Origin: Candidatus Woesearchaeota archaeon
GTDB taxonomy: Archaea; Nanobdellota; Nanobdellia; Woesearchaeales; ARS49
Direction: 5' to 3'
Assembly (NCBI GenBank): GCA_016215315.1
Contig: JACRKG010000045.1
Coordinates: 19,204 to 83,203 of the forward strand
Length of the DNA stretch: 64,000 bases
Part shown: positions 1,224 through 57,326 of the stretch, in pieces
Layout: each line of letters begins with the position of its first letter
Position numbering within the stretch: the stretch's first letter is position 1
Notes under the pieces: model-generated
Seen by the model: only the letters and a program-made list of their open reading frames with translations
Told to the model about the DNA's origin: nothing
Databases searched by the model: none
Program-made: the position numbers and the translations under genes

Positions 1224-1621
1224 AAGTTGTCATAACTTTAATTTCTTTTCTGAACCTTTTAGATTTTCCCCTGGTCGCCTGCAAATTAGTTCACGGTTCG
1301 CAGTTTATGGTTTACAGGACGCACTGCAAACTACGAACCATAAACTATGAACCTAAAGGCAGGCGGAACATAGACGCCGCGATAAAATACTGGGTATCTG
1401 AGGTATCATTTGATATCATAGACATTACTGGGTGTCGGGAGAATTGATAACAGAATAGTTTTAAAAGTGCACACTAAAAACTTATCTACTTTTTTATCAA
1501 CTGTTATTGTCGCCAAAACAATTAAAAAACTCAACATGCACATTCAGAAAGGCGACCTGAGCTAAGAAAATTTTCTTGAAATTTAATAAATTCTTTGAGA
1601 ATTTTAATATTATGGAGATTT

Positions 1622-2644: not shown

Positions 2645-3010
2645 TTACAATCGTATAAGACCTAAACTTATCTTTATCGCTTCGTCAATTCCGCTTTTTG
2701 TTTCAACGTCTAGTTCCCCTAGTTTTTTAATAAGTCTTCTTTTATCTACTGCTCTTATTTGATTAAGCAACGCTTTAGAATCTTTCTGCAGTCCTTTTCT
2801 TTTCTTTATAAAAACCTCAAAGGGATAGATTTTATCGACTTTTTGAGAAGTTACTGGCGCAATGATAGTTATTGGACTGTAAGTGTTTCCATAATCATTT
2901 TGAATAATTACTGCAGGTCTTGACTTTTTAATTTCATGACCAATAGTGGGATCTAAATTAACAAGCCAAATATCTCCTCGTTTAACTTCAAAAATTCTTA
3001 TTTCTACCAT
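2645..3010 (-). CDS. mazF: MazF/PemK-family type II toxin endoribonuclease
   Basis: GDIWLVNLDPTIGHEIKKSRPAVIIQND...SPITIIAPVTS signature of PemK/MazF. Confidence 0.8.
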   Translation of the reverse strand: MVEIRIFEVKRGDIWLVNLDPTIGHEIKKSRPAVIIQNDYGNTYSPITIIAPVTSQKVDKIYPFEVFIKKRKGLQKDSKALLNQIRAVDKRRLIKKLGELDVETKSGIDEAIKISLGLIRL

Positions 3011-10893: not shown

Positions 10894-12015
10894 ATGGTAC
10901 ACGCAGACTTAAAAGAATACATTGGAAAATTACCTAGTTCAATAATTCAAGAACTAGAAGAAACTTGCCCAGCATCAAAAATGAAGAAAGTAGCAAAACT
11001 AGTTCATGAAGAATTTGAAAACTCAAGAATATCACCTGGAGAAGCAGTAGGACTAATCAGTGCAGAAAGTATTGGAGAACCAGGAACACAAATGACGTTA
11101 AACACATTCCACTTTGCCGGAGTAGCTGAAATGAGCGTCACAAAAGGATTGCCTAGAATAATAGAAATCCTAGACGCAAGAAAAACCATTTCAACACCAA
11201 CAATGGAAATTTACTTACACGCTCCATACAACAAAGGAAAAGACATAAGAGAAATAGCAATGAGAATAAAAGAAACAAACATGGAATCAGTGGCAAAAGA
11301 TTTTGCCATCAATGTTGTCGACTTAAAAATGGAAACAACACTCGACGCAGAAAAACTAGAAAAACTAGAATTAAACTCCAAAAAAGTACAAAAAATATTA
11401 GAAAAAGCACTAGCAAAAGAAGCAAACGTAGAACTAAACGGAGACAAACTAGAAATTTCATTAAAAGGAAAAGAAAAAGACCTAAACCAATTATACAAAT
11501 TAAAAGAAGCAATCAAAGACGTATACGTTTGCGGAATAAAAGGAATAAAACAAGTACTACCCGTAAGAAGAAAAGAAGACTACATAATCATAACAGCAGG
11601 ATCAAACTTAAAAAAAGTATTCGAACTAGACTTTGTTGACTCATCAAGATCAACATCAAACGATATTCACGAAATAAAAAAAATATTAGGAATAGAAGCA
11701 GCAAGACAAGCAATAATTGACGAATTATTACAAGTTGTAGAAACACAAGGATTAAATGTAGACGTAAGACACTTAATGCTTGTCGCAGACACAATGTGCA
11801 TATCGGGAGACATAAAAGGAATAACAAGATACGGAGTAGTCAGTGAAAAAGCAAGTGTTCTAGCAAGAGCAAGCTTTGAAACACCAATAAAACACTTAAT
11901 AGAAGCATCAGTAATAGGGGAAATAGATTACTTAAACTCAGTAGTAGAAAACGTAATGCTAAACCAACCAGTACCATTAGGAACAGGAATGGTAAAATTA
12001 GTATCAAAAAAATAA
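10894..12015 (+). CDS. rpoA2: RNA polymerase subunit A''
   Basis: Rpb1 C-terminal region homologue, follows rpoA' with 1-nt gap. Confidence 0.9.
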
Positions 12016-13162: not shown

Positions 13163-13758
13163 GCGAAGTATTAGTATTCAACAAATGGAGTGCTCAAGGA
13201 GCAAAAGTAGTAGATCCGGGATTAATAGATTACATAAGTGTAAAACCAGTCTACGTACCAAAAACCGCAACAAGATATGCAGGCCACAGATTCAGAAAAT
13301 CAAAACTATTCATAGTAGAAAGATTAATCAACAAAGTAATGGTGCCAGGCCACAGAGCAAAAAAACACAGAAAAAGTTCAGGACACCAAACAGGAAAAGC
13401 AGTAAAGGCATACCAAATAGTAGAAAAAGCACTAATACTAATCGAACAAAGACTAAAAAAAAATCCAATAGAAGTAGTAGTTAAAGCAGTAGAAAACGGA
13501 GCACCAAGAGAAGAAATAGTAACAATAGAATACGGTGGAGCAAGATATCCAAAAGCAGTAGAATGCGCACCACAAAGAAGAATAGATATAGTACTAAAAT
13601 ACTTCATAAACAGTGCTTACGACAAATCATTCAAAAGCAAAAAAAGCATAGAAGAAAGCTTAGCAGAAGAAATAATTGCAGCATACAGGCTTGATCCAAA
13701 AAGTTTGGCAATTTCTAAAAAAAACGAAATGGAAAGACAAGCAGACGCAAGCAGATAA
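13159..13758 (+). CDS. rps7: Ribosomal protein S7 (uS7)
   Basis: S7 family sequence, operon position. Confidence 0.9.
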
Positions 13759-13800
13759 AACTAGTTCACAGTTTGTGGTCTACAGTTTACAGTAAAAAAG

Positions 13801-14007
13801 GTGATAAAAATTAAAAAAATATTCAATTGGATATCATTGGTGCTTTCTGCATATACAACTCTTGCTTTTTTAACATCCTTCTTTGTTCCAAGCATAAAAC
13901 TAACACCAATACCAGCACAATACTCAGCAGTACTACCAATATATCTAGGATTTGTATTAACATTTGCAGTATTGTTTAATGGAATTGCTGCAGTATTAAA
14001 AGAATAA
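13801..14007 (+). CDS. Small hydrophobic protein (2 predicted TM helices)
   Basis: 68-aa hydrophobic ORF; weak support. Confidence 0.3.
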   Translation: MIKIKKIFNWISLVLSAYTTLAFLTSFFVPSIKLTPIPAQYSAVLPIYLGFVLTFAVLFNGIAAVLKE

Positions 14008-14064
14008 TTCTTTCTTGAATTTGTTAAAAACTCTATTTTGTTTCTTATCTTACTTAAATTTTCT

Positions 14065-14183
14065 CAGTTTCAGTCGCCACGAAGAGTGTGCCAGTAGAGT
14101 TTCTTAATTATTCTAGCGACAAAGACAGTTGATAAAAAAGTAGAAAGAATTTTTTGAGTGCACGTGAATTACTTTTCAGTTAT
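14065..14183. repeat. Copy A of a repeated non-coding element (agtagagtttcttaat...gcgaca...ataaaaa...ttttgagtgcac...acttttcagttat)
   Basis: Aligns along about 120 nt with 37347-37470; ends in the 37-bp direct repeat 14147-14183. Confidence 0.6.
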
Positions 14184-14185
14184 AC

Positions 14186-14638
14186 TTAATCCTTGAACAA
14201 ATCTCTATATTTATCATCGAATTGGATGTAAATATTCTTTGCGTAGTTTATTTTAAGGTATGATTCCGCACTTGATTTTAATGCGTTGTCTAGTCTTTTA
14301 AAATAACCTTTCATTGTACTAAAAACGCTTAAAGCTTCAGCATAATTTTGACTTTGATTATTTACTTTAAAATCCAAGTTTAATGCAAGCTCTACGTGAT
14401 CTCTTAAACTATGAACTTTTTTGTTCATCGGAATACCTTCTTTTTTAATGACTTCATCAATCGAGTTCATTATCAAACAAAGTTCGCTTATTTCTTTACT
14501 TCCAGTTCCAACTTCTCTAACAATGCGTTTTGTTTCCGCTTTTTCTTTGACCTTTCTAATAGTGGTTTCAGCTTTACTTTTATTCAAAGCATCCATTTTA
14601 GAATTATCCCTTGGCGGAGTAGGACTAGACCATGGCAT
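14186..14638 (-). CDS. Hypothetical protein (150 aa) carried in a cassette flanked by 37-bp direct repeats
   Basis: ORF preceded by conserved leader with GAGGTG Shine-Dalgarno. Confidence 0.55.
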   Translation of the reverse strand: MPWSSPTPPRDNSKMDALNKSKAETTIRKVKEKAETKRIVREVGTGSKEISELCLIMNSIDEVIKKEGIPMNKKVHSLRDHVELALNLDFKVNNQSQNYAEALSVFSTMKGYFKRLDNALKSSAESYLKINYAKNIYIQFDDKYRDLFKD

Positions 14639-14641
14639 TAA

Positions 14642-14687
14642 ACCACCTCAACTCTCTTTAAGGGATTACAGTTAATAAATATTACTG
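14642..14687 (-). promoter_or_regulatory. Conserved promoter/5' leader (TATA-like ATATTTATTAA plus GAGGTG SD), copy 1
   Basis: About 44-nt near-identical copy at 25052-25094 in front of another minus-strand gene. Confidence 0.5.
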
Positions 14688-14790
14688 AATTTTTTGAGTG
14701 CACGTGAATTATTTTTCAGTTATCAATTTCTGCGCAGCAGAGTTAATGTTCCGGTTGAGAATGCAGAACAAAACTCAATAAGCACACAAA
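14687..14790. repeat. Copy C (3' part) of repeated element: T-run, GAGTGCAC box, TTTCTGCGCAGCAGAGTTAATGTTCCG
   Basis: Second copy of 37-bp direct repeat (14687-14723) followed by 28-nt block identical to 20798-20825. Confidence 0.6.
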
Positions 14791-14899
14791 TCAAGTAACC
14801 GGCTAAGAGAAAATTCAACTAAAATTGGCTTTATTTTTTAGAAATATTTATATACTTATAACTTTTTATTACTAATTAATAACTATTGAGGTGGTTTAA

Positions 14900-15187
14900 A
14901 TGCCTGAATTAATGTTTAGAAAAAAAATGATAAAAGCGCAGCATAGTCCTACTTTGAATACTGTTATGATGGTTGAAGAAGTCATAAGAACTGCTAAAGA
15001 AATTATTAGTGTTGCTGAATTAAAGAGAAAACTTCCTAAAAAAGTAAATCATTACACTTTAAAACTCATTCTTTCCTATTTACAACTTAGTGGAAAGATA
15101 GAATTTACTCCTAATGGCGTTCTCTGGATTTTCATGCCAAGAGAAGATCTTAAATTAATTATGAAAAAAGGCAGAACATGGACTTAA
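14900..15187 (+). CDS. Hypothetical small protein (95 aa)
   Basis: ORF with GAGGTG SD 8 nt upstream. Confidence 0.5.
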   Translation: MPELMFRKKMIKAQHSPTLNTVMMVEEVIRTAKEIISVAELKRKLPKKVNHYTLKLILSYLQLSGKIEFTPNGVLWIFMPREDLKLIMKKGRTWT

Positions 15188-15353
15188 AAGATAAGCAAAA
15201 AATTGTTCAACTAATTGGACATGCTGATGAAGCCCTGCAAAAATTAGAACACAACATAAATTCTTACGAAGCTCAAGTTAAAGTAATTTCTGTTGTTTTT
15301 GAAATATGCGATCATGATGCGTATAATAAAATATTTGGTTATAAAAAGAAATA
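15180..15353 (+). CDS. Possible small ORF (57 aa) overlapping previous stop (ATGGACTTAA)
   Basis: ATG/TAA overlap typical of coupled genes; not in ORF track because under 60 aa. Confidence 0.25.
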
Positions 15354-15377
15354 AAAAACAGTTTATTTCATTTAAGA

Positions 15378-20696: not shown

Positions 20697-20760
20697 GCGG
20701 ATTACCTGTTGAAACAAATTATATTGGCGGAAAATAAAATAATTTGAAAGATTTATTCTT

Positions 20761-20850
20761 TTTTTTAGTGTGCACTAATTAAATTTAATAATTATAAATT
20801 TCTGCGCAGCAGAGTTAATGTTCCGAACGCTTAGAGCAATAAAACTAAAG
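20761..20850. repeat. Copy D of repeated element (T-run, AGTGTGCAC box, TTTCTGCGCAGCAGAGTTAATGTTCCGAACGC)
   Basis: Same module architecture as 14687-14790 and 37440-37525. Confidence 0.6.
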
Positions 20851-20942
20851 CTGCACAATTAGTATGAGTTCTGTAAGGAGAAAATAAAAAAAGATGACAA
20901 GATTTAAATACTAGTAATTACTTATAATTACTGGTTATAACT

Positions 20943-21143
20943 ATGAATATCCAGATAAGCATTCACGCCAAAGAAAAAATGGATAAAGAAGGGATTGACG
21001 AAGAACAGATTAAAACTGCAATAACTAGAGGGTCTGTTTCGAGGCAAACTGATGGTTATCTTGCTTCATACACATATTTTAGTGTAGCTTATCAAAAGAA
21101 AGGAGAAATTTACAGAATAAAAACAGTATATTTGAATAAATAA
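20943..21143 (+). CDS. DUF4258-like toxin-family small protein
   Basis: IHAKEKMDKEGIDEEQIKTAI motif resembles DUF4258 (HAxxRMxERGI). Confidence 0.45.
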   Translation: MNIQISIHAKEKMDKEGIDEEQIKTAITRGSVSRQTDGYLASYTYFSVAYQKKGEIYRIKTVYLNK

Positions 21144-21144
21144 G

Positions 21145-21489
21145 GTGGAAAATATGGAAAATGAAAGTACTTGTTGGGATTGTGGGAAGAAAATGATTAA
21201 GAAAAATGTAGAGTACTCTTTGTATGGTATATTAATTGGCAAATTTCCTGCCTTGGTTTGTGATAATTGCAAAGAAACTTTATTTAGTGAAGAAACATCC
21301 AAGAAAATCACTCAACTAGTTAAAGAAAAAGGCTTGTGGGGTTTGCAGGCTAAAACAAAGGTAGGTCAGGCTGGCAAAACTTTAGATATAAGACTGCCTA
21401 AGAAAATAATAGATTTTGTAAAATTCAAAAAAGGCACAGAAGTGACTATCACTCCTGAAAGCCAAAATAAAATAGTAATAACTGTTTAG
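21145..21489 (+). CDS. Zinc-ribbon (YgiT/MqsA-type) plus SpoVT/AbrB-like antitoxin-type DNA-binding protein
   Basis: CWDCG...CDNC zinc ribbon; C-terminal LDIRLPKKIIDFVKFKKGTEVTI swapped-hairpin-like motif; 1-nt spacing to upstream gene. Confidence 0.5.
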   Translation: MENMENESTCWDCGKKMIKKNVEYSLYGILIGKFPALVCDNCKETLFSEETSKKITQLVKEKGLWGLQAKTKVGQAGKTLDIRLPKKIIDFVKFKKGTEVTITPESQNKIVITV

Positions 21490-24961: not shown

Positions 24962-25045
24962 TTATTTCTTCTTCTTACATTTGCAATTTGACATTTCTTT
25001 GCCGCACTTTTCGCAAGCATTGCTACCACAACATGATCCGCACAT
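24962..25045 (-). CDS. Cys-rich micropeptide (27 aa: MCGSCCGSNACEKCGKEMSNCKCKKKK)
   Basis: GAGGTG SD 7 nt upstream; shares conserved promoter/leader with gene 14186-14638. Confidence 0.4.
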   Translation of the reverse strand: MCGSCCGSNACEKCGKEMSNCKCKKKK

Positions 25046-25051
25046 AATATT

Positions 25052-25094
25052 TCACCTCAATCTCCTTAAGAAATTCCAGTTAATAAATATTACT
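25052..25094 (-). promoter_or_regulatory. Conserved promoter/5' leader, copy 2
   Basis: Near-identical to 14642-14687. Confidence 0.5.
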
Positions 25095-25191
25095 AAAAAA
25101 GTTTGCAGTTTGTAGTTTACAACCTGCAGTAGGGGAAATTCATTTAGAACCATTGCACTGTAAACTGTGAACTGTAAACTGCCAACCAGTG

Positions 25192-26407: not shown

Positions 26408-27778
26408 TTGACCAAAGAAATTATTGAAATATTGAAGATAATTTTCATAAATAATTTAAATGTTCAGTTAATTCTCAGTTTAATGATTCAAATAGCTTCA
26501 GAGCAGCCAAAAACTTGCGGTAGCGAAGGTTCTGGACAATTATCTGCTTCAGCTCAAGAAGAATTAGAAAAACAAGCATACAGAATTGTTGGAAGACATA
26601 GTGCAGTAAAGACTTGCGGCTGGACTAAAAACATGATTCGCGGTGAAGGCGGCTGCTACAAATTAAAGTTCTACGGCATAATGAGTCATCAATGCATGCA
26701 AATGACAACAAGTATTAGTTGTGCTAATAGGTGTACTTTTTGTTGGAGGGGCTACAAAGCACCAGTAGCAAAAGAATGGAAGTGGGGTGTTGATGATCCA
26801 GAATTTATTCTAGAAAATAGCTTAGAAGCACATCACGACTTAATTGTTGGCTTTAAAGGAGGTAAAAAAACAAACGAAAAATTATTTGAAGGTTCTCAAG
26901 AAGTAAAACATGTAGCTCTTTCACTGACTGGAGAACCTATAACTTACCCAAGAATAAATGAATTACTAGATTTATTTAATCAAAAAGGAATTTCTACTTT
27001 TTTAGTAACAAATGCGCAATATCCTGAACAAATAAAAAATCTTAAACCAGTAACTCAGCTTTATGAAAGCCTAGATGCACCAAACAAGGAATTACTTAAA
27101 GAAATTGATAAACCATTATTTATTGATTTCTGGGAAAGAGCAAATCAAAGTCTTGATTATTTGAAAGAAAAAAAACAAAGAACTTGTATTCGATTGACGA
27201 TAATTAAAGGAGTTAATGATGTTGAGCCAGAAAATTATGCAAAACTAATACTGAAAGGAATGCCTGATTTCATTGAAGTAAAAGCATACATGTGGGTCGG
27301 AGCATCAAGAGAAAGACTAAACAAAGCAAACATGCCATTACACGAAGAAGTAATTGACTTCACGAAAAAATTAATTCAATACTTGCCAGATTATGACATA
27401 GTTTCAGAACACATTCCTTCAAGAGTAATAATGTGCGCTAAAAAGAAATTCTTCAAAAATGGAAGATGGCACACGTGGATTGATTTCCCAAAATATCACG
27501 AACTAGTAAATTCCGGAAAAGAATTTGTGACAGCTGATTATTTGAAACCCACACCAAGTACAGGACTTTCAGGCAAAGGAACTATCGATAGAAGAAAAGA
27601 ATGGGAAGAAATAAAGTTAGAAAAAAAAGAAAAACAAAATGAGGAAAAACAAAACAAAGAAAAAGAATCTCAAGAAGTTTACGTTAACGAAACAATGCCC
27701 GAACTAGATTTCTGGCAAAAAAAAGAAGAACAAACAACAGAACAAAATACAGAACAAAAACCGCCAGGTGGATGCTAA
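26408..27778 (+). CDS. taw1: tRNA 4-demethylwyosine synthase (Taw1/TYW1, radical SAM); true start possibly 26483
   Basis: KTCGWTKNMIRGEGGCYKLKFYGI.SHQCMQM....CANRCTFCWR; CxxxCxxC; K/E-rich C-terminal extension. Confidence 0.75.
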   Translation: MTKEIIEILKIIFINNLNVQLILSLMIQIASEQPKTCGSEGSGQLSASAQEELEKQAYRIVGRHSAVKTCGWTKNMIRGEGGCYKLKFYGIMSHQCMQMTTSISCANRCTFCWRGYKAPVAKEWKWGVDDPEFILENSLEAHHDLIVGFKGGKKTNEKLFEGSQEVKHVALSLTGEPITYPRINELLDLFNQKGISTFLVTNAQYPEQIKNLKPVTQLYESLDAPNKELLKEIDKPLFIDFWERANQSLDYLKEKKQRTCIRLTIIKGVNDVEPENYAKLILKGMPDFIEVKAYMWVGASRERLNKANMPLHEEVIDFTKKLIQYLPDYDIVSEHIPSRVIMCAKKKFFKNGRWHTWIDFPKYHELVNSGKEFVTADYLKPTPSTGLSGKGTIDRRKEWEEIKLEKKEKQNEEKQNKEKESQEVYVNETMPELDFWQKKEEQTTEQNTEQKPPGGC

Positions 27779-27813
27779 AAAGTTTGTAGTTTGGTGTTTA
27801 TGGTTTACGGGAA

Positions 27814-33710: not shown

Positions 33711-34049
33711 TTGTGGCATTCTCCATTAATGTTTGGTAATGCTTGGGCAAGATTATCTGGAATGGATAAAAAAATAAAAAAAGTAAGCAAGAGTAGTATG
33801 AATTTAGCTTACGGCGGAACTTTGGTAACAACCTTATTGACTGCTTTTGTGCTCTCTTTGTTTTTAGAAAAAATAACCTTGTTCGGTGAAGGTCTTTTCC
33901 TTGCATTCGCAATTTGGTTTGGTTTTTATGCAACTTCTCAATTAGGAATGGTTTTATGGGAACAAAAATCCTTCAAACTGTTTTTAATAAACAGCGGGCA
34001 TAGCTTAGTTGCGTTATTAGTTATGGCTGCAGTAATAATTGCAGTATAA
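33711..34049 (+). CDS. Small membrane protein
   Basis: 3 hydrophobic helices. Confidence 0.4.
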   Translation: MWHSPLMFGNAWARLSGMDKKIKKVSKSSMNLAYGGTLVTTLLTAFVLSLFLEKITLFGEGLFLAFAIWFGFYATSQLGMVLWEQKSFKLFLINSGHSLVALLVMAAVIIAV

Positions 34050-34118
34050 ACTATAAACTCCAAACTATAAACCAAGAACATAAATTTATTTAAACTCTTA
34101 TTTTAGAAGTAATTCTAA

Positions 34119-37249: not shown

Positions 37250-37346
37250 GAAAAATACAAATAATTGATGGTTTATAAGTTTTGTTCAAGAAAAGATTTG
37301 TAGAAGAGAATGTGTTAATTCTCTTGATTCTAGTTTACAAAAAGTT

Positions 37347-37525
37347 CAGTTTACGATTTGAAGTTTGTGTGTGAGTAGAGTTTCTTAATGGGCATGGCGA
37401 CAGCATCATGAGTCTATAAAAAGGTTGAAGAGTTTTGAGAGTGCACTCAAATAACTTTTCGTTTATTATTTTTCAACGCGCTAGCGTTGACAAAGTGTTC
37501 CGACCGCCTAAAAGTATAATTAAAC
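37347..37525. repeat. Copy B (apparently intact) of repeated non-coding element
   Basis: Contains agtagagtttcttaat, gcgaca, ataaaaa, ttttgagagtgcac, hairpin caacgcgctagcgttg, tgttccgaccgcctaaaagtataattaaac. Confidence 0.6.
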
Positions 37526-37619
37526 TTTACAAGCACAAGAAGCGAGCGTGTCGGCTAGGGGAAAATTAAAATCCAGATTAAAATTGAGCAAAGTTATTAA
37601 CAAAATAAAAATAGTAATT

Positions 37620-41356: not shown

Positions 41357-41830
41357 GAATTCTATCTTTCTTAATCAGTATAAAAATCTAATTGTGCAAA
41401 AAACTTTGTTAGTTACAGGCTTTACTATGAACTCCAAACCACAAACTCCAAACCTTTTCACTGGACACCCTTTTTTTGGGAAATCTTGCAAAAAAATTGA
41501 AAATTTTCCCAAACTTTTGCTAAGAAATTCACTAAGAAAAACTGAATTCATCGTCTAATTTATCAAAAAACCAATACACTGCAAACTACAAGCTGCAAAC
41601 TATAAACTAGAGTTCACTGGACACTGGACATTTACCCGTAGGCTATTTAAACAAACCCTAGAATTAATATTTACTGGCAAGGCAAGAGAGAGTGAATATT
41701 TAAGTGCCCACGCATTTGAATATTCATTCCTTGAAACCTTGTCAGCTACCTTATATAAAAAGGTTTTGGTGAATAATTCAAAAAAGCAAATTTTACTAGC
41801 GTTAGCTCTAAAACACTTGGAGGTGAGAAA

Positions 41831-44984: not shown

Positions 44985-45095
44985 AAAAAATACTGCGTAT
45001 TTTTTAGTTTATAAAACTTTTTAGGAAAACAAGCAACTCAAGCGTGATGCGCACTACTGTGCTTACCCGCAAATACTTTTTTTCAGGTTCATGAT

Positions 45096-45168
45096 TAGCT
45101 CCGCTCGGATTTGAACCGAGGTCTAGAGGGCCAGAACCTCTTATGCTTGACCACTACACCACGGAGCT
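45096..45168 (-). tRNA. tRNA-Gln(CTG)
   Basis: Reverse complement folds: acceptor AGCTCCG/CGGAGCT, anticodon stem AGAGG/CCTCT loop TTCTGGC, T-arm CTCGG-TTCAAAT-CCGAG. Confidence 0.7.
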
Positions 45169-45204
45169 ATTTGATAACAGAAACTAGATTAGTATTATAA
45201 ATTT

Positions 45205-46113: not shown

Positions 46114-46213
46114 GAGCCCACCTCAATAAATTGGAAATTGTGGTTGTTTATAAAGTTTGTTTTTATTACCCTTAAAATACTAAAAAATTATATACTTTTC
46201 TCTGTTTCTATTC

Positions 46214-47164
46214 TTGATGGGGATAAATCCTGAACTAAAATCGCACTTGGCACACTTGGGTAATTTAGGAATCTTTACTGCGTATAGATCAATGCCTTTT
46301 TTTCATTTACTAAAATACACCGGTTTTACTAATTTTACAGAACAGAGAGGTTGTATGTCAGTTAAGAATAAATCTTCAAAAACAGATGATTTAATTGACT
46401 GGCTAGAAATAGTCTTGAATGATAATGTTTTGAGATTTGATGAATGGGGGCAAATTCTTGAGTGTAAATTAACAGATGAAGATCAGAAAGAATTGATTGT
46501 TGTACTAAAAGGTTTTGAAGAATACTTAGTGCATTCTTTATTCAGAACGTATTTTTTTAAGAGTACTGTTGGAGTTGATGCTCCTTTAGAGGATTACTTG
46601 AACATGAACGTTTGTCCTATTGTAGTTGAGTTTTACAATTTTATCGAGTCTGATTTTAAAAAAATAGAACCATTGCTCAAAGAAGCAAAAATAACTGTTG
46701 AAAAACTTAAATTTTTCAAAAGCGAATATAATATTGAGGTTGAACTTGGAAAGGATTTTTTGAAACTGAGCGCAAAAAATTCTTTCATAAAGATTCCTTT
46801 AGTTAAATTTGAAAGGCATTACTTCACTCAGACTTACAAAGCAAGAGGGGATATCTTATATTCTTATGTAAAATTCAGAGACCAATGGATGAATGTTCCC
46901 GAACCATCAAAATTCACTTTAGATCCTCTCAATACTGGTATTTCAGCAATATATTTCTCGGAGTATTATGATAAAAAAGTGAGAGAAACAGAATCGGGAA
47001 AAGAATCAATGGAAGAAATAGACAAATCTTTTCCGCTAAAACAAAAAATCTCTTTGGTAGAATATCAAGGAGACCAGAAAATATGTGCTCGTCTCGCAGG
47101 AAGATTACTTTGTTCTTTGGGAAGTTATATGGCTAAAAATGGAAAAAACTTATTAGTGTTATGA
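46214..47164 (+). CDS. Hypothetical protein (316 aa)
   Basis: ORF. Confidence 0.45.
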   Translation: MMGINPELKSHLAHLGNLGIFTAYRSMPFFHLLKYTGFTNFTEQRGCMSVKNKSSKTDDLIDWLEIVLNDNVLRFDEWGQILECKLTDEDQKELIVVLKGFEEYLVHSLFRTYFFKSTVGVDAPLEDYLNMNVCPIVVEFYNFIESDFKKIEPLLKEAKITVEKLKFFKSEYNIEVELGKDFLKLSAKNSFIKIPLVKFERHYFTQTYKARGDILYSYVKFRDQWMNVPEPSKFTLDPLNTGISAIYFSEYYDKKVRETESGKESMEEIDKSFPLKQKISLVEYQGDQKICARLAGRLLCSLGSYMAKNGKNLLVL

Positions 47165-47706
47165 TTATAATTAGCCCATGTTTGAGCTTGACCTTTGAAT
47201 TTTTCACTCGCTTCTATTCTGTGTATTACACTTTCATTACAAGGCTTATATTTTTTCTTTACTTCTTAATAAGCGGTGAAAACATGGTCAAACAAACTAA
47301 TGTATTTGAAAAGATTGAACAATTTAAAAATGTTTTGAAGCCTTTAACGGTTGGAAAAACAGATCAAGACATAAAATTAATGCTTTGTCATTGTAAGCAT
47401 TACAATCTCAGTCTAAGAAAAAGCTTAACTACAGAAGAATATGCTTTAAATGATTTTCTTATGAAAAAAGGTTTGAATGCTAAAACTATTTATGAAAATT
47501 TTGTATTCATAGATTATCCTCAAAGCATAAAGAACTTGTTAGCAGAGAGGAAGATTTCCATAAAAGAAGCGCAATCGCGTTTTATGGCAATTAAAAAATT
47601 GGTAAACGTGAGGGATGGTAAAGATTTAATGACTGAAATAAAATCAGTCATAAGGAGGTTAGAATGGTCTGGGCTCAACAAAACTATCACAACACAGGAA
47701 ATTTAA
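47161..47706 (+). CDS. Hypothetical protein (181 aa)
   Basis: ORF overlapping by 4 nt. Confidence 0.45.
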   Translation: MIIISPCLSLTFEFFTRFYSVYYTFITRLIFFLYFLISGENMVKQTNVFEKIEQFKNVLKPLTVGKTDQDIKLMLCHCKHYNLSLRKSLTTEEYALNDFLMKKGLNAKTIYENFVFIDYPQSIKNLLAERKISIKEAQSRFMAIKKLVNVRDGKDLMTEIKSVIRRLEWSGLNKTITTQEI

Positions 47707-48497
47707 GCAAAACTCAAGAAAAAAAGAGAAAAAGAAAAAGATTTCCTAATGTATTTTTCAAGAACGAAATAACTGAATTATTTGACAATATTGAAGATCT
47801 TAAAACGATGATGGCTAGTTTTTTGGCTTTCTTTTGCGCATTAAGAAATAGTGAAGTATGCAAACTAAAATGGCAAGATATAGACTTAGAAAACAAAAGA
47901 TTAAAGGTTGTGGACGGTAAAAACCACAAAGACGGATTTATACCAATAAGTTCTGTATGCATACCAATACTCAGAAAATGGCGGCAAATAAACTCTGAGT
48001 CAGAATATTTTTTGTCGGGGGAAGCAAAAGGGCTGCCGTTCTTAAGCTCGCATGCATTACTGGAGCGCTTTAAAGTTGCATTATCCAGAGCAAATCTTGA
48101 CATTCCAACAGAGAAAAATGCGGGAGGAAATCAACAGCATCAATACAAATTTCATACTTTGAGGCACTCTAGATGCACCCACTTATTGAACAATGGTGTG
48201 CCAATACAAAAAGTTCAGCACTTCATGAGGCACGACAAAATAGAAACAACAATGCATTACACGTGGATCTTAGACACAGAATTAAACAAAATGGTAGAAA
48301 AAGTTGATACTTCGCCAATGAAAATGTATCAAGAAATAATGCCGGAAAACAATCAATTTACTCAAACACAAACAATAGTGCAGCAAGAACACAGCAATCC
48401 AATAGAAATCGCCAAAAGACGCTTAGCATTTGGAGAAATCAGCCCCAGAGAATTTAAAAGAATAGTTGGAGTGCTTCAAACACCGCTAAGTGTCTGA
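47664..48497 (+). CDS. Tyrosine recombinase/integrase (XerC/XerD/phage integrase family)
   Basis: ALRNSE (R), HTLRHS (HxxR), RHDKIETTMHY (R/H...Y) catalytic signature. Confidence 0.75.
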   Translation: MVWAQQNYHNTGNLSKTQEKKRKRKRFPNVFFKNEITELFDNIEDLKTMMASFLAFFCALRNSEVCKLKWQDIDLENKRLKVVDGKNHKDGFIPISSVCIPILRKWRQINSESEYFLSGEAKGLPFLSSHALLERFKVALSRANLDIPTEKNAGGNQQHQYKFHTLRHSRCTHLLNNGVPIQKVQHFMRHDKIETTMHYTWILDTELNKMVEKVDTSPMKMYQEIMPENNQFTQTQTIVQQEHSNPIEIAKRRLAFGEISPREFKRIVGVLQTPLSV

Positions 48498-48524
48498 AAA
48501 GTTACTTCTTTTTTTCAGTCCATT

Positions 48525-48800
48525 TTGGACTGCTTTTTTTCTTCAACCCAATATTTATTCTCACTTATCTTTCATAAGAATATGAAAAATAAAAAAATAA
48601 AAAAGCAAAAAAACAGATATAGGTTCAACTTTATTGAAGAAGAACCGGCAGTTTCTTTTTGTGAAATTTGCGGCGTCCCTTCAAAAGACGCTAAAGTAAT
48701 GTTTTCTAGAAAATTCAAGTGCGAAATTTGTACAACCTGCTACGAGGAAAGACTAAATGAAAACACAGGGGATGTTATAGATCCAAAATGGTGGAAATAA
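48525..48800 (+). CDS. Zinc-ribbon small protein
   Basis: CEICG...CEICTTC. Confidence 0.4.
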   Translation: MDCFFSSTQYLFSLIFHKNMKNKKIKKQKNRYRFNFIEEEPAVSFCEICGVPSKDAKVMFSRKFKCEICTTCYEERLNENTGDVIDPKWWK

Positions 48801-48831
48801 AAGTTCAAAAATATCAAGGAGGAAAAACAAA

Positions 48832-49251
48832 ATGACAAATGAAATACAAAAATATGATCCGCAGGCTTTTGCGGCGCAGAGAGTTTATGACAGGCTCACA
48901 GAGCCTTTAGAAGATTTAACGTCAGTTCAACAGATTAACACTATTGCTGTAGGTGTTGGAAACTTGAAAAGAACTCTTGAAGAAGTAGTTGAAAAGTTAA
49001 AAGACAAAGCTGTTGACGAACAAAAGAAAGTCGTTGGAGAAAAAGACGATAAAGTGCAAAATGTTTATTCTGGACTTGATAAAGCCAGAAGAACTAACGA
49101 CTTTGAAATGTACGACAAAGTGAGCATGGATGTAATCAGAGCAATCATGCAGGCTAAAGGCTCAGTTTCTGATTTGAGATTGTTACAAGCTGGAGATTTT
49201 GATGGTTACGTGAAAAGTCAAAAACTTCTTACAGAAGGTGATGCGAAATGA
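48832..49251 (+). CDS. Hypothetical protein
   Basis: AGGAGG SD. Confidence 0.45.
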   Translation: MTNEIQKYDPQAFAAQRVYDRLTEPLEDLTSVQQINTIAVGVGNLKRTLEEVVEKLKDKAVDEQKKVVGEKDDKVQNVYSGLDKARRTNDFEMYDKVSMDVIRAIMQAKGSVSDLRLLQAGDFDGYVKSQKLLTEGDAK

Positions 49252-49778
49252 ATGATTTAGACCAAAAACTCAAACAGTATGAGACTACTGCTGTTGATGT
49301 TACTAACAAAATGTATGATCCTAATCTCAGAACTGAGAGCAGCAAAGAGGTTTTAGAGAATTTTCCGAATGTCAGGCTGGCTTCGGAAAAACAAGAAAAC
49401 AAAGCAGTTATTGGGCGGAAAGGAATTAATTTCCTTTCTGCCTTATTTTTATCAGCAGGAATAGGCATCGGAGGATACTTTGTTGGCAACTATCAAGGAA
49501 AACATCATGGATTCGAGAAAGGACAAGAAATATTACTGAGAGAAATTACAAGAAATTATTTCGACAGCAAAACAAGAAGTTATCTAGGGCATGAAAGGTT
49601 TTACACAAAAATAATGAGTCCTGCAATTCTTGGAAGGGAACCGACAAGCAAAGAGTTTGATATAATTCTTGATGAAGTACTAAACACTATTGTTCCAGAA
49701 AGCGGCTTGCCTCTAAGAGAACACATAACTGAAAGTTCAAAACATGGCTACTTTTATTTTGGAGGTGTAAAAAAATGA
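49248..49778 (+). CDS. Hypothetical membrane-associated protein
   Basis: One TM (INFLSALFLSAGIGIGGYFVG). Confidence 0.45.
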   Translation: MNDLDQKLKQYETTAVDVTNKMYDPNLRTESSKEVLENFPNVRLASEKQENKAVIGRKGINFLSALFLSAGIGIGGYFVGNYQGKHHGFEKGQEILLREITRNYFDSKTRSYLGHERFYTKIMSPAILGREPTSKEFDIILDEVLNTIVPESGLPLREHITESSKHGYFYFGGVKK

Positions 49779-50170
49779 AAGCAATACAAATTTTCTTTTT
49801 TTCTTTACTTTATTTTTTAGTTTATTTAACAATAAGTTTGGCTATTGATTTGTATTTCGGCTTAGAAACGAGTATTCCTGAACTTGTAACTATTGGTTTG
49901 ATGTTTAACCTTTTACTGATTGTTTTGCTTGTTTTTGAAGTTCCAGACAAGATTGCTGAAAAGTTTGCCAGAAAAAAGGAAAGTGTTTTGTTCTACATAA
50001 CTGAAGACGTAAAAGATGATAAAAATACTTCTGAATTGTTGGAAACTCTTGAAGGAAACGCAACAAAAATAGAATCCCCTAAGAAGTCTGAAGAAAAATC
50101 CAATGAGAAAATCATAGAAGCTGAATTTGTGAAACAAGTTCAAGATCAAAAAGAAGAAAACATATACTGA
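49775..50170 (+). CDS. Membrane protein
   Basis: Two N-terminal TM helices. Confidence 0.45.
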   Translation: MKAIQIFFFSLLYFLVYLTISLAIDLYFGLETSIPELVTIGLMFNLLLIVLLVFEVPDKIAEKFARKKESVLFYITEDVKDDKNTSELLETLEGNATKIESPKKSEEKSNEKIIEAEFVKQVQDQKEENIY

Positions 50171-50182
50171 GGAGGTAAAAAA

Positions 50183-50533
50183 ATGGAAACAATTAACATT
50201 TTGCTTAAAATTTTGATGTACATTTTAATAATTACAACCCCATTAATACTTGGGTCAAAATTAGTTAACGCTTACCCTTACAATACTATCAGCAGTCAGG
50301 ATCAGCAAAAGATTGACGAAATCATGGCTCCATTCAACAAAGTATTCAATTTCGTTAGAATCGCAGCTGGTTCTGTAGCAGTTTTTGTTCTTATTTTAGC
50401 TGGAGTGGTTTACATGACTGCTGGAAGTGATGTTGGAAAGAAAGAGAAAGCCAAAAACATGGCCACCGGAGTTATTGTTGGACTAATGATTTTTGTTGTA
50501 GCACCAACAGCAGTACAATACCTAATAACTTGA
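50183..50533 (+). CDS. TrbC/VirB2-like pilin candidate
   Basis: 116 aa, long signal/TM, second hydrophobic helix near C-terminus, GGAGG SD. Confidence 0.4.
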   Translation: METINILLKILMYILIITTPLILGSKLVNAYPYNTISSQDQQKIDEIMAPFNKVFNFVRIAAGSVAVFVLILAGVVYMTAGSDVGKKEKAKNMATGVIVGLMIFVVAPTAVQYLIT

Positions 50534-50543
50534 GGAAAAAATA

Positions 50544-51491
50544 ATGAAAAAACAATCTAGATACTTACAAGTATCAATAATTTTAATTGCATTATTGCTC
50601 ACTTTTAATTCAGTTAGTGCGAGCCACAATGATGATGAAGAACCTCCAGATAAAGGCTTTTTTGGCAACATCTTTGATGACTTAACTGATGCAATAACTG
50701 CAATACCTGAGATGTTATTAGATTTGTTTCTCGACATAATTAACGCTCCAATTAGACCTTTATTGAGTTTTATTAAAACTCTTCTAGGTGAGCCACCGAG
50801 CACAAGTATTTTTAAAAGTATTTGGAGTATAGTTGTCTACATTTTCAGTTTTTGTTTTAGTTTGATTCTTGTTTTTTGCGGTTTCAGTTTTATTCTTTCA
50901 GGGCATGATGTTGAGAAAAGAGAAAAAGCTAAAGATTGGCTAAAAAACACATTAATATTGATTATTTTGTTGCCTGCAAGTTACTTTATTTATGAATTAA
51001 TTCTTCAATTTAGTGCAGGACTTACAAATTTTGTCTTAAACATAATACGTCCAGAATTTTTTTTAATAACTTCAAATAATCTTGGAGATATTTTCTTAAG
51101 CCTCGCGTTATCAATACCTTACTTAATTGTCTTGTTATTAACTGGCATTGTTTTAGTTATTCGTTATGCACTCATTAGTGCAGGAGTGATATTTTTTCCT
51201 ATAGGAATCTTTTTTTATTTCATCAGTCCACTTAAAAGTTATGGTAGTTTTATAATTAATTTTTTGATGATAAATATATTTATAGGTTTCATTAACGCAT
51301 TGTTTTTGCTTGCATTTTCTAAGCTTGTTGAACTACCTGTATTTAGTACTTTGAAAATTCTAGTCATGATCTCAGCTTTTTTGATTATTGATTTAATAAC
51401 AATTTTTGCGATGGTTTTCGCACTCATCAAAGCAGCAGTAAACTTCGGAAAGACCGTTGTTAATCCAGTAGTTAAAATTGTAAAACCATAA
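50544..51491 (+). CDS. Polytopic membrane protein (VirB6/TrbL-like candidate)
   Basis: Signal peptide plus at least 6 TM helices. Confidence 0.4.
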   Translation: MKKQSRYLQVSIILIALLLTFNSVSASHNDDEEPPDKGFFGNIFDDLTDAITAIPEMLLDLFLDIINAPIRPLLSFIKTLLGEPPSTSIFKSIWSIVVYIFSFCFSLILVFCGFSFILSGHDVEKREKAKDWLKNTLILIILLPASYFIYELILQFSAGLTNFVLNIIRPEFFLITSNNLGDIFLSLALSIPYLIVLLLTGIVLVIRYALISAGVIFFPIGIFFYFISPLKSYGSFIINFLMINIFIGFINALFLLAFSKLVELPVFSTLKILVMISAFLIIDLITIFAMVFALIKAAVNFGKTVVNPVVKIVKP

Positions 51492-51495
51492 AAAA

Positions 51496-52449
51496 ATGAA
51501 TGATACTCAAACTTTTCGGAAATTGAATGTTGTTGACTTCTTTTGCGGAGCTGGAGGATTCAGCAAAGGTTTCGAGCAAGCAGGCTTCAACATATTGGCA
51601 GGAATAGATTTTAATGAGAATGCAATAGCCACGTTCAAACAAAATCATTCTGGTAAAGGGGTTGTCAGGGACATAAAAAAGTTGTCTCTAAAAGAGTTTA
51701 ATGAGCTCACAGGATGTTCTGGCGTCGATGTTTTGATCGGTGGCTTTCCGTGTCAAGGATTTAGTCTTCTTGGGAAGCGTAACAAAAAAGATCCTAGAAA
51801 TCTTTTATACAGAGAATTATTACGTTTCATTGAAGGATTAAAGCCTGAGTTTGTTATTCTTGAAAATGTGAGGGGTTTGGCTTCAATGAAGGATTCTAAA
51901 AATAATTCTGTTTTATCCTCTATACTGCAAGAAATTATTTCACTAGGTTACTGTGTTAGTTACAAAGTTTTGCTGGCAAGCGATTATGGAGTTCCACAAA
52001 ACCGTGAGCGATTAATCATTTTTGCACAGAAAATAAACTTTTTTGACATTCCAAAAATTGAAAATAAAACAACAGTGATTGAAGCTTTGCAAAACATTCC
52101 TGAAGGATTAAATGCTCACATTGTTGTAAATCATAAGCCAGAATATTCTGAGCGTTTAGCACAAGTTGCACAGGGTAAAAGTCTTGGAAAATTCAGATCT
52201 TGCATGAGACTTCAGGCAGATAAGCCAAGCAACACAATAACGAGCGGAGACTTAATACATCCAACACTCAATCGTTTCTTAACTCCTAGAGAAAGCGCGC
52301 GATTACAAGGTTTTAGCGACGATTTTGTTTTTTGCGGTGGAAGAGAAAGTATCAAGTTGCAAATTGGTAATGCAGTTCCTCCACTACTTGCTAAAGTTCT
52401 TGCAAATCAGCTATTAGCTGAGATTAATCGAGGTGTTTCAAATGTATGA
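51496..52449 (+). CDS. dcm: DNA (cytosine-5)-methyltransferase, no adjacent restriction enzyme recognised
   Basis: Motifs I FFCGAGGFS, IV GFPCQGFS, VI ENVRGL, VIII QNRERL, X GNAVPP. Confidence 0.9.
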   Translation: MNDTQTFRKLNVVDFFCGAGGFSKGFEQAGFNILAGIDFNENAIATFKQNHSGKGVVRDIKKLSLKEFNELTGCSGVDVLIGGFPCQGFSLLGKRNKKDPRNLLYRELLRFIEGLKPEFVILENVRGLASMKDSKNNSVLSSILQEIISLGYCVSYKVLLASDYGVPQNRERLIIFAQKINFFDIPKIENKTTVIEALQNIPEGLNAHIVVNHKPEYSERLAQVAQGKSLGKFRSCMRLQADKPSNTITSGDLIHPTLNRFLTPRESARLQGFSDDFVFCGGRESIKLQIGNAVPPLLAKVLANQLLAEINRGVSNV

Positions 52450-55195: not shown

Positions 55196-56232
55196 TAGAT
55201 AACGAATTATTTATTATTTCACTGTTTCTTATAGGAACTCCTTTAATTATTATAGGTTTCGTAAACACTAATTATTACATCATTCCAAATTTTTCAATGT
55301 ACAATTTATTTCTTGCCTTGCCGGGATTTGTTGGCATAATTGTATTCATTTGCGTTTTAACATACCTAATTCTAAAGATTTTTCACTTAGTACAGTATTT
55401 GTTTGTCCGGCGTAAAATAATTAGTTTAAAACAAAAAGAACAAACAATAAAAACACATCAAGAAAATCACATTGCTAAATTAAGCGAAGAGTTAGATAAA
55501 ATATTTCTTGAAGCAAAACCATTACTAAAAGCAGAAAACACCTTTGAAAACAAGCAAAAACTTGAAGAAATACAAAAAGAATTATTACAATCAAAATTCA
55601 AAGACTTAGAATTACACAAGAAAAGAATTCAATACGTTCAACAAATCGGAGAAAAAGTAAGAGAAATAGAAATCTACTTGAAAAGTAAAGAAAAAGAAAT
55701 ATTAGGTAAAGAAGAACAAAGATTAAAAGAATTAAAAGCAGAATGTGGGTACGTCAAAGGCGCAAAATTATCTGATTGGGATAAAGAATTGTTATTAAAA
55801 AGAGGTTTTGCCAAATTACAATGTAATGAGTTTTGTGGACGTGGAAATCCAGTATATTTCTTAAAACCGAGAGATAAAGAAACTCCAGAGCACTTCTTTT
55901 TAGTTAGGCATACTCAAGAATATCTTGAAAATAAAGGGATAACTGCAACAACACCTGAAAAAAGAGATGCAGATGTTATCTTTGAAATAAATGGAGTAAC
56001 TTATGCAATAGAAGTTGAAACTGGAACTTATCCTGAGAAGAAACCTGAAGAATTTGAAAATAAAATAAAACAATGCAATGACAAATACGGCAACAATTGG
56101 ATGTTTTTAGTGGTTCATAGAGATCTTATTTCATTCTATAAAAAGTACAATGCAAAAACATATCATCGTGAACAGATGGTGGAGGTGCTGGATGTAATAA
56201 CATCAACAAATCACATCAACAAAAATAATTGA
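55177..56232 (+). CDS. Membrane-anchored coiled-coil protein with C-terminal possible nuclease-like domain
   Basis: 2 N-terminal TM, K/E coiled coil, C-terminal DADVIFEINGVTYAIEVETG block. Confidence 0.45.
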   Translation: MPENSLIDNELFIISLFLIGTPLIIIGFVNTNYYIIPNFSMYNLFLALPGFVGIIVFICVLTYLILKIFHLVQYLFVRRKIISLKQKEQTIKTHQENHIAKLSEELDKIFLEAKPLLKAENTFENKQKLEEIQKELLQSKFKDLELHKKRIQYVQQIGEKVREIEIYLKSKEKEILGKEEQRLKELKAECGYVKGAKLSDWDKELLLKRGFAKLQCNEFCGRGNPVYFLKPRDKETPEHFFLVRHTQEYLENKGITATTPEKRDADVIFEINGVTYAIEVETGTYPEKKPEEFENKIKQCNDKYGNNWMFLVVHRDLISFYKKYNAKTYHREQMVEVLDVITSTNHINKNN

Positions 56233-56330
56233 AAAATTGATGTGGGATTTATAAAAAAATCACATCAATAAATTTGACAAAAACACAGAAAACTCTGAAA
56301 GAAAATCAGAAAACACATCAACAAAATTTC
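56200..56330. repeat. Iteron-like repeats CACATCAA(C/T)AAA (4 direct and 1 inverted copy)
   Basis: Copies at about 56201, 56212, 56261, 56314 and inverted TTGATGTG at 56237. Confidence 0.55.
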
Positions 56331-56375
56331 CACTTATATACATATAATTTTACTTAATATGGGGAGGGCAATAAA

Positions 56376-56651
56376 ATGGAAAATGAAACACAACAAAACA
56401 CAACACAAAGTGTGACACCAAGTGTGCCGCAAAGTACAACGCCAGTTTTCAAACCTAATGTAAATCAGGACGATAGCGTTGGTTCTTTTATCAGAAAACA
56501 AAACATCAAAACCAAAATTAATCAACTAGGCTGTCAAGTCGGAGTAGATTTTTATCCTCGCTTTAACGAATTTCTAGAAAGCACGATAGTAAAAGCAATC
56601 TTTAGAACTAAATGCAACAGAAGAAAAACTGTTCGTGGGATGGATATCTAA
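56376..56651 (+). CDS. Hypothetical protein
   Basis: GGGGAGGG SD. Confidence 0.4.
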   Translation: MENETQQNTTQSVTPSVPQSTTPVFKPNVNQDDSVGSFIRKQNIKTKINQLGCQVGVDFYPRFNEFLESTIVKAIFRTKCNRRKTVRGMDI

Positions 56652-56652
56652 A

Positions 56653-57186: not shown

Positions 57187-57326
57187 AAATATTTTTTTAT
57201 TTTTTTCTATTTTTAATACGAGCGAATAAGCGCCGTCCGTCGGTTTTGGTCATTTAGAGGCTGATTTTGCTTAACAGTCTGAATTTGTTTGGTTTGTATA
57301 TTTGAGGGGTTTTATCTTCTCACAAA

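Follow-up and report, generated by a model that had tools for sequence, protein, structure and literature searches.

A structured, non-coding repeat element of a Candidatus Woesearchaeota archaeon, a small archaeon from groundwater, is split exactly at its central hairpin by a 503-bp module made up of one small gene and its promoter, with a copy of the hairpin core on both sides. The element, here called copy A, lies within a stretch of 64,000 nt (contig JACRKG010000045.1 of assembly GCA_016215315.1, positions 19,204 to 83,203), which we analyzed as a whole, refer to as the window, and number from its first letter. Copy A sits downstream of the gene for ribosomal protein S7, and this locus is a hot spot at which pieces of the element turn over between strains while the genes stay. 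Tentatively, we read the direct repeat formed by the two cores as having arisen when two directly oriented cores recombined reciprocally. As a whole, the footprint has the look of a local reshuffle around a resident gene and falls short of proving a free-moving cassette.

The 37-mer GAATTTTTTGAGTGCACGTGAATTACTTTTCAGTTAT occurs twice, with a spacing of 540 nt, and the two occurrences agree at 36 of 37 positions, the single mismatch being C14172 versus T14712. The C at 14172 corresponds to the family consensus and pairs with a G of the 5' strand of the central hairpin, H3. The first-pass annotation had described this direct repeat and noted that it brackets a minus-strand gene along with that gene's own promoter, and both statements are borne out. 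No such match was expected or found in 100 dinucleotide-preserving shuffles, and the pair is the sole long direct repeat within 14000-14900. The 503 bp between the cores (14184-14686) hold the open reading frame (ORF) plus 48 nt of leader and promoter, and the bracketing is precise. Within this genome, the cores of distinct copies are only ~76% identical or less (76% in the case of copy B). Given a difference of 1 in 37 between the gene-flanking cores versus at least 24% among cores of the family, the near-identity calls for a recent copying event rather than family-wide conservation.

The duplication probably extends ~17 nt further to the left at low identity (14670-14686 versus 14130-14146). 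In this extension, ACAGTTAATAAA and ACAGTTGATAAA match at 11 of 12 positions (shuffle p ~0.02), and the outer 17 nt of the gene's promoter weakly resemble the 5' strand of H3. A hidden Markov model (HMM) built from copies B and C only, with copy A left out, aligns 14670-14686 to that same strand. The duplicated stretch would then probably span the whole central hairpin, possibly ~54 nt when the diverged part is included. An inverted-repeat search of 14000-14900 revealed no inverted repeat that pairs the two ends of the insert (14184 onward, and up to 14686). A 15-nt repeat shared by the 3' end of the gene and the right-arm loop was judged to be chance, as that stretch is conserved coding sequence in loci devoid of the element.

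Members of the repeat family were identified by BLAST, nhmmer and a covariance model (R1), the seed of which did not include copy C or the copies on contigs L091 and L128. The intact copy seen in the first pass, copy B, is indeed uninterrupted with a single core; the number of copies in the window, however, is four (A to D) rather than two. Further copies were found only in a few related Woesearchaeota contigs (L002, L007, L128 and L091), bringing the known family to n = 8. R1 recovers the non-seed copies C, L091 and L128 at 59, 48 and 76 bits, respectively. The elements are ~230-330 nt long, 25-35% diverged from each other, and scattered among housekeeping genes rather than gathered in an array. 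Two members, D (20730-20890) and L128 (4359-4506), are solo units that consist of the core and right arm.

Do the two flanks of the gene derive from one element, as had been proposed? When scored with the B-plus-C HMM, native copy A gives two hits, both of which use HMM positions 106-170. After removal of 14184-14723, there is one contiguous hit (70.2 bits, E 1e-22). Moreover, at its outer limits the split copy carries a 19-nt inverted repeat with 16 of 19 positions matching (AATTTTCTC ... GAGAAAATT). The contiguous hit and the matching ends together indicate that the two halves belong to one element, in line with the earlier claim. An internal duplication intrinsic to the family, which the first pass had named as grounds for refuting an insertion footprint, is not seen: B, C, D, L002, L007, L091 and L128 each carry a single core.

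A full copy comprises, in order, the terminal inverted repeat, the left arm with stem H2, the central hairpin H3, hairpin H4, the right arm with stem H5, and a purine tail. H2 encloses a loop of ~37 nt that carries GTGTGC..GTAGAGTTTCTTAAT; H3 is AT-rich, with the invariant palindrome GTGCAC at its tip; H4 is a short GC hairpin; and H5 surrounds a loop of ~38 nt that carries AATAAAACT..AAGCAC, followed by the tail CTAGGGGAAAAT. In copy A, H2 pairs GTCGC (14073-14077) with GCGAC (14116-14120) across a 38-nt loop containing the conserved box GTGTGCCAGTAGAGTTTCTTAAT (14086-14108). H4 of this copy is CTGCGCAGCAG (14730-14740), H5 pairs CCGGTT (14751-14756) with AACCGG (14797-14802) around a loop that contains AACAAAACTCAATAAGCACAC, and the purine tail is CTAAGAGAAAATT (14803-14815). 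The left arm of A is 75% identical to that of copy C and 72% to that of copy B, and the right-arm region is 82% identical to copy D over 66 nt. In L002, the terminal ends measure ~20 nt (TTTTTCCTAGCCGCCCGC and its partner). ORFs across the core run in different frames in A and B.

Complementarity of the arm stems is kept across copies. For H5, the paired strands are CCGGTT/AACCGG in A, CCGACCGC/GCGGTCGG in L002, CAGACCAC/GTGGTCTG in L007 and CCGCTTGCA/TGCAAGCGG in L091; for H2, they are GTCGC/GCGAC in A, GTCGCC/GGCGAC in C and CCTCCGTC/GACGGAGG in L091. In an alignment of eight sequences, itself fitted to the model, 84% of the stem cells are paired, a share that falls to 34-45% once the partners are slid. 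For H5 the figure is 95%, and both members have changed in 5 of its 8 pairs. The pairing score observed was attained in 0 of 500 shuffles. With covariation based on eight sequences and a fitted alignment, these data are suggestive of structural constraint on the stems. The same compensatory pattern would also arise for a folded DNA strand. Sixteen cells contain G-U or U-G on the plus strand, which would be A-C mismatches on the opposite strand, a weak hint that the plus strand may be the one that folds, either as RNA or as a single strand of that polarity.

R1 also recognizes the left arms of A (31.8 bits) and C (33.5 bits) when these are reverse-complemented (E ~3e-4). Across copies, the left loop is similar to the right loop read in reverse complement (p ~0.003-0.006), with direct left versus reverse-right alignments only marginal. 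Judged from these comparisons, the element is pseudo-palindromic, consisting of two inverted units with one common hairpin. The L002 element, which reads as a reverse-complemented right arm, GTGCAC, and a right arm, had been considered as an inversion junction at the palindrome. This idea was dropped once R1 matched the reverse-complemented left arms of A and C, and the L002 element is better seen as a more symmetric member of what appears to be a pseudo-palindromic family.

The gene inside copy A encodes a 150-amino-acid protein that is identical to hypothetical protein HZA97_07670 of a Candidatus Woesearchaeota metagenome-assembled genome (MAG; 88.9-kb contig). Only 4 homologues are present among 5.8 billion proteins. 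A search of 1.84 billion representatives yielded two weak partial matches and no further full-length relatives, no relatives were found in viral contigs, and Pfam, PHROGs, NCBIfam and PDB gave no match. The ratio of nonsynonymous to synonymous substitution rates (dN/dS) is 0.13-0.25 versus the four homologues, and by this measure the ORF is a real gene under purifying selection. The AlphaFold2 model has five helices arranged as a generic helical bundle (predicted local distance difference test score, 72.7), for which no fold match was found at E<=0.001. The leader and promoter are conserved along with the gene in L002, L007 and L005.

Two observations concern this promoter region. First, a perfect 14-nt inverted repeat, TTAAACCACCTCAA / TTGAGGTGGTTTAA, is present at 14638-14651 and 14886-14899, so that the divergent genes 14186-14638 (-) and 14900-15187 (+) have identical Shine-Dalgarno leaders. 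Their TATA regions are also similar (14670-14689, 14837-14856), and the two leaders bracket core 2 and the right arm. Second, a twin of the promoter and leader (25053-25097, ~87-90% identity) drives a cysteine-rich ORF of 27 codons elsewhere in the window (24962-25045, minus strand). The twin is followed by a short stem and TAGGGGAAATT (25098-25140), resembling the stem and tail of the element's right arm, and 24962-25140 may be a strongly reduced family member.

It is hardly credible that the split element is an artefact, be it an assembly chimera at a repeated sequence or a chance repeat. The element is repeated in the genome, and the short-read contigs of sister strains L007 and L092 do end inside it, as a chimera might lead one to expect. 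On the other hand, the arrangement is 100% identical in the 88.9-kb NCBI MAG contig and in an independent Logan assembly of SRR12113407 (L001), and 37 nt is shorter than a typical sequencing read. The absence of any such repeat from the shuffles, and an ORF that is both intact and under purifying selection, likewise argue against this explanation.

Comparison with related strains shows how the locus varies. In the sister strains, L002 (GCA_053530895.1) and L007/L092 (SRR22388050), the order S7, 68-amino-acid gene, element, 150-amino-acid gene, variable genes and 495-amino-acid gene is kept. There, the 150-amino-acid gene lies ~100 nt beyond an intact element, not inside it, and the element subtype differs per strain. 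Homology between the window and these strains ends exactly at the stop codon on one side and 8-9 nt into core 2 on the other (14186-14694 for L007; to 14695 for L002). In L007, the promoter is followed by GAATTTTTCTGTTATT, a 16-mer identical to the 3' end of L007's own core, and an exact 16-nt repeat of this type arises in 3 of 200 shuffles. No core remnant was found at the promoter junction in L002. Contig L091, in which S7 is 76% identical, has an uninterrupted element at the S7-downstream locus and lacks the 150-amino-acid gene. In the more distant L005 (81% identity), the gene lies between those for arginyl-tRNA synthetase and a radical-SAM protein; the arginyl-tRNA synthetase region of L002 contains other small genes and another copy of the element. 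The junction that follows GTTAT at the 3' foot of H3 is joined to four different sequences across copies and strains, namely right arm type I, right arm type II, the 3' end of the gene, and unrelated DNA in L007. Elements at the S7 locus differ completely among three strains, with surrounding genes 79-92% identical.

How might the split have come about? If recombination is concentrated at the core hairpin, a crossover with the chromosomal core could involve either a circle of DNA or a neighbouring segment that carries the gene, its promoter and a core. The same exchange could alternatively occur between sister chromosomes (unequal exchange). Either event would divide the element into left arm plus hairpin and hairpin plus right arm, and the gene would retain its own promoter, abutting core 2. 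Recombination of one 37-mer with the other would then excise the gene precisely, as a circle of 540 bp, and leave an intact element behind. We tentatively prefer this as a single-step account and infer recombination at the core from the sharp bounds of the repeat, the near-identical cores, the contiguous join and inverted outer ends, the single cores elsewhere, the uninterrupted element at the L091 locus, the variable partners of GTTAT, the turnover at the locus, and the apparent structural constraint on the stems.

Several points weigh against recombination between cores. Neither a circular form nor a read from an empty site was seen, nor was a second interrupted copy, and there is no recombinase in or beside the module. 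The gene occupies the same chromosomal slot in the sister strains and has diverged like the flanking core genes, the gene and promoter being 92% identical at the nucleotide level versus 90.7% for the upstream housekeeping block. If the gene integrated at all, its donor was a close relative or the same locus. The diverged homology to the left of core 2 and the 16-nt repeat of L007 fit gene conversion between pre-existing units equally well. Furthermore, with a known family of just eight members and an alignment fitted to the model, the statistics on covariation are thin. A single instance is all that speaks for a mobile cassette. Of the first-pass view that a gene cassette landed in the element and left a recombination footprint, the footprint stands, but a recent landing is at odds with the same slot in two sister strains and with divergence like that of the flanking genes.

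These same observations raise a different scenario, the main rival, in which no insertion took place. A resident gene was flanked by two units, the hairpins of which were homogenised by gene conversion, and a deletion brought core 1 to the stop codon. On the left would be an inverted left-type unit with its own hairpin, and on the right a core plus right-arm unit, the outer hairpin strand of which doubles as promoter. Solo core plus right-arm units do exist (D, L128), and the region 14671-14819 scores 112.9 bits with R1 as a full-length unit, the bases nearest the promoter serving as the hairpin's 5' strand, an assignment with which the B-plus-C model agrees (14670-14686). Vertical inheritance of the gene at this locus is also accounted for, and the repeat of its own core at the same promoter junction in L007 is what concerted evolution predicts. 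We nonetheless regard this scenario as somewhat unlikely. It calls for at least two events, a sharp-ended conversion and a deletion ending exactly at the hairpin foot, and head-to-head units should have mutually inverted hairpins, whereas the repeats are direct. In addition, the terminal inverted repeats at the two outer ends match, which is what one element would show, and the halves join seamlessly on a model built without copy A.

A true target-site duplication, also suggested in the first pass, appears improbable. In this case, transposition-like or Cas1/casposase-like staggered cuts 37 nt apart around the hairpin would have been followed by insertion of the 503 bp and gap repair. Several families of mobile elements preferentially target hairpins and palindromic repeats, and the repeats that Cas1-type integrases duplicate are about as long as this one. 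The 36/37 repeat, its sharp ends and the precise bracketing are all as this model would have them. The hallmarks of a transposon, however, are missing: the insert lacks terminal inverted repeats, conserved ends, a transposase and an integrase, and the duplication is too long, at 37 nt compared to 2-15 bp for a typical classical transposon. No Cas1 was detected among the window proteins scanned, which did not include every ORF. Nor is the gene in a new place relative to the sister strains. It does occur in another context, in L005, but this truly different context shows neither element, duplication nor core. Weak homology continuing to the left of the repeat is not expected of staggered cuts. 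Finally, the strain-specific 16-nt core repeat of L007, found at the same promoter junction, suggests that cores recombine or convert one another and does not suggest one footprint of transposition.

Features of the split element and of the other copies in the window
Feature	Coordinates	Strand	Details
Left arm of copy A	14047..14146	+	terminal inverted repeat 14047-14065; stem H2; start of H3 5' strand ~14129
Core copy 1	14147..14183	+	apical part and 3' strand of central hairpin H3; palindrome GTGCAC 14158-14163
Spacer AC, 2 bases	14184..14185		separates core copy 1 from the gene's stop codon
Gene for 150-amino-acid all-helical orphan protein	14186..14638	-	ORF
Leader and promoter of the gene	14639..14686	-	Shine-Dalgarno GAGGTGG 14643-14649; TATA-like ATTTATTAA 14672-14680
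Core copy 2	14687..14723	+	36/37 identical to core copy 1
Right arm of copy A	14724..14825	+	H4, H5, purine tail, terminal inverted repeat 14807-14825
Copy B	37302..37572	+	uninterrupted, single core; R1 153.3 bits
Copy C	1258..1590	-	uninterrupted at core; H4 expanded; heptamer-repeat hairpins inside H5 loop; R1 59.1 bits, E 2e-9
Copy D	20730..20890	+	core and right arm, left side degenerate; adjoins DUF4258/antitoxin pair; R1 105.5 bits

The site lies just downstream of a cluster encoding RNA polymerase, L30e, NusA, S12 and S7 and a gene for a small membrane protein. On the opposite side are a 95-amino-acid winged-helix gene, a 58-amino-acid ORF and a 149-amino-acid gene. The 58-amino-acid ORF (15178-15354) matches both ends of a 124-amino-acid gene that is intact in contig L129 (79-740). 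The winged-helix protein has 305 homologues in Woesearchaeota and Nanoarchaeota, some named 'transcriptional regulator of viral defense system' by the Joint Genome Institute (JGI). From these matches, the 95/58-amino-acid pair (14900-15354) is a probable decayed toxin-antitoxin-like module. Toxin-antitoxin-type modules adjoin several copies of the element: a MazF-type toxin gene is found near C, and a DUF4258 gene with a zinc-ribbon/AbrB-like partner directly follows D (window 2645-3010, 20943-21489). In the sister strains, a nucleotidyltransferase gene and a 177-amino-acid partner, probably an MNT-HEPN pair, lie next to the gene and its promoter (L002 3853-4945). The RNA polymerase A'' gene of L002 (7826-10453) contains an intein with Intein_splicing and LAGLIDADG domains, which the window's 373-amino-acid orthologue (10894-12015) lacks; a BLAST alignment of the two genes has a gap of ~1.5 kb at window position ~11090.

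A second kind of intergenic repeat in the window consists of tandem heptamers of the form AGTTYRY (e.g. agttcac agtttgt ggtctac agtttac), located at 1280-1352, 13755-13794, 25100-25186, 27773-27812, 34049-34079 and 41577-41607. The heptamers often come right after a stop codon and are sometimes arranged as inverted pairs that form a hairpin, and one set is found within the H5 loop of copy C. Possible roles are those of terminators or of binding sites for proteins.

Two recombinases are encoded in the window, ~33-42 kb from the site, and nothing links either to it. The only tyrosine recombinase (47664-48497, 33 kb away) has its best match to a XerA-type model, at 103.5 bits with a cutoff of 220, and scores 83.6 bits with the integron-integrase model (cutoff 265). 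The other is a small serine recombinase (56635-57186). Both belong to a block (~46200-57200) that also includes genes for a protein resembling pilins of type IV secretion systems (50544-51491), a C5 DNA methylase (51496-52449) and a VirB4/TraG-like ATPase (52433-55195). This block looks like an integrated conjugative-type element; no att-type repeat of the nearby tRNA-Gln gene (45095-45169, minus strand) was found.

We also searched more widely for the element and for known RNAs resembling it. R1 had no match in 31 viral loci drawn from viral contigs with a loose right-arm pattern, and detected no element in S7 neighbourhoods at ~70% identity (L093-L096) or in 20 kb of the L005 genome (L130). 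The left-arm box GTWGAGTTTYTTAATNNNNNNRGCGACA had no match in viral contigs; its one match in metagenome contigs falls inside a bacterial gene (L090) and was taken as chance. The core pattern ATAAAAARGTWGAN{10,15}GTGCAC proved too loose, with 81 single matches in genome contigs (80 in unrelated bacteria and one in a Promethearchaeota MAG), which were likewise put down to chance. Upstream of tRNA-Gln, 12 nt match the foot of the core, as chance would predict. GTGCAC as an avoided restriction site was rejected, there being 9 occurrences versus ~5 expected.

No family of Rfam 15 matches the element. At the gathering threshold, the whole window returned tRNA-Gln only, and permissive scans of copy B, copy A with flanks and L007 gave chance-level matches (E >= 0.5). 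Signal recognition particle RNA, RNase P RNA, C/D or H/ACA small RNAs, omega RNA, bridge RNA and retron RNA were each dropped as candidates on account of lacking an Rfam match, lacking partner genes, or being multi-copy.

Little is known about the mechanisms of gene flux in DPANN archaea, whose genomes are tiny. The S7 locus offers a place, defined by sequence, at which gene content and structured repeats are reshuffled between close strains, and the clean 37-nt footprint makes excision and integration directly testable in the reads of the source metagenome. Quite apart from the cassette question, the repeat is a structured element that has not been described before, with stems that appear to covary, loops that are conserved and no match in Rfam. 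A new non-coding RNA is one possibility, a new kind of palindromic repeat in archaea another.

Palindromic intergenic repeats and MITEs (miniature inverted-repeat transposable elements) of bacteria and archaea include the ERIC, Correia and REP/REPIN-type elements and archaeal MITEs. Our element resembles these in being multi-copy, non-coding and intergenic, mostly at gene 3' ends, and in its terminal inverted repeats, fold-back structure and mosaic arms, as well as in the presence/absence and subtype differences between strains at one locus. With inverted ends of 19 nt (16/19), a length of 230-330 nt, no coding capacity and four copies in 64 kb, it has the features by which MITEs are recognized. 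It differs from them in that no target-site duplication was seen in the sequences flanking A, B or C, and no cognate transposase was found among ~64 window proteins scanned. Moreover, divergence of 25-35%, together with what appear to be compensatory stem changes around conserved loops, is more typical of a selected RNA or folded single strand than of recent transposition.

Archaeal viruses and plasmids integrate into tRNA genes via SSV- or pNOB8-type integrases. As at the S7 locus, the target is a structured, RNA-like sequence, part of which (tens of nt) recurs as a direct repeat on both sides of the insert, and recombination between the repeats would restore the target. Here, however, the inserted 503 bp contain a single orphan gene and no integrase, and the target is a multi-copy element, not a tRNA gene.

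Archaeal integrons have been reported by Ghaly et al. 2022 (PMC9668308). The arrangement at the S7 locus is somewhat like an integron cassette with its attC site in that one small gene is bounded by a structured hairpin site, with structure better kept than sequence. A complete hairpin lies at both junctions, and small toxin-antitoxin-type genes adjoin several copies. By contrast, the R''/R' core motifs are absent. We took an attC site to be an imperfect hairpin of ~55-140 nt that has RYYYAAC (inverse core) and GTTRRRY (core) at its ends. The foot of the hairpin here is ...CAGTTGATAA / TTATCAATTT, and, judged on these core motifs, GTTATCA and GTTGATA both fail GTTRRRY. In further contrast to integrons, the gene has its own promoter, there is neither a cassette array nor an adjacent integrase, and the element, 230-330 nt in length, has two additional arms. 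Near-identity of the junction sites over 37 nt is likewise something that attC recombination neither requires nor produces. One could still speculate that the central hairpin is a structure-recognised recombination site, attC-like in function and unrelated in sequence. It would belong to an undescribed DPANN cassette-shuffling system that moves single-gene modules equipped with a promoter (orphan genes, toxin-antitoxin pairs) into and out of structured repeats that are dispersed, not gathered in one array, with the 37-nt repeat its integration product and the turnover at the S7 locus its activity; we consider this very unlikely. The locus combines repeat-mediated gene shuffling with palindromic or structured intergenic repeats, both of which are known kinds.

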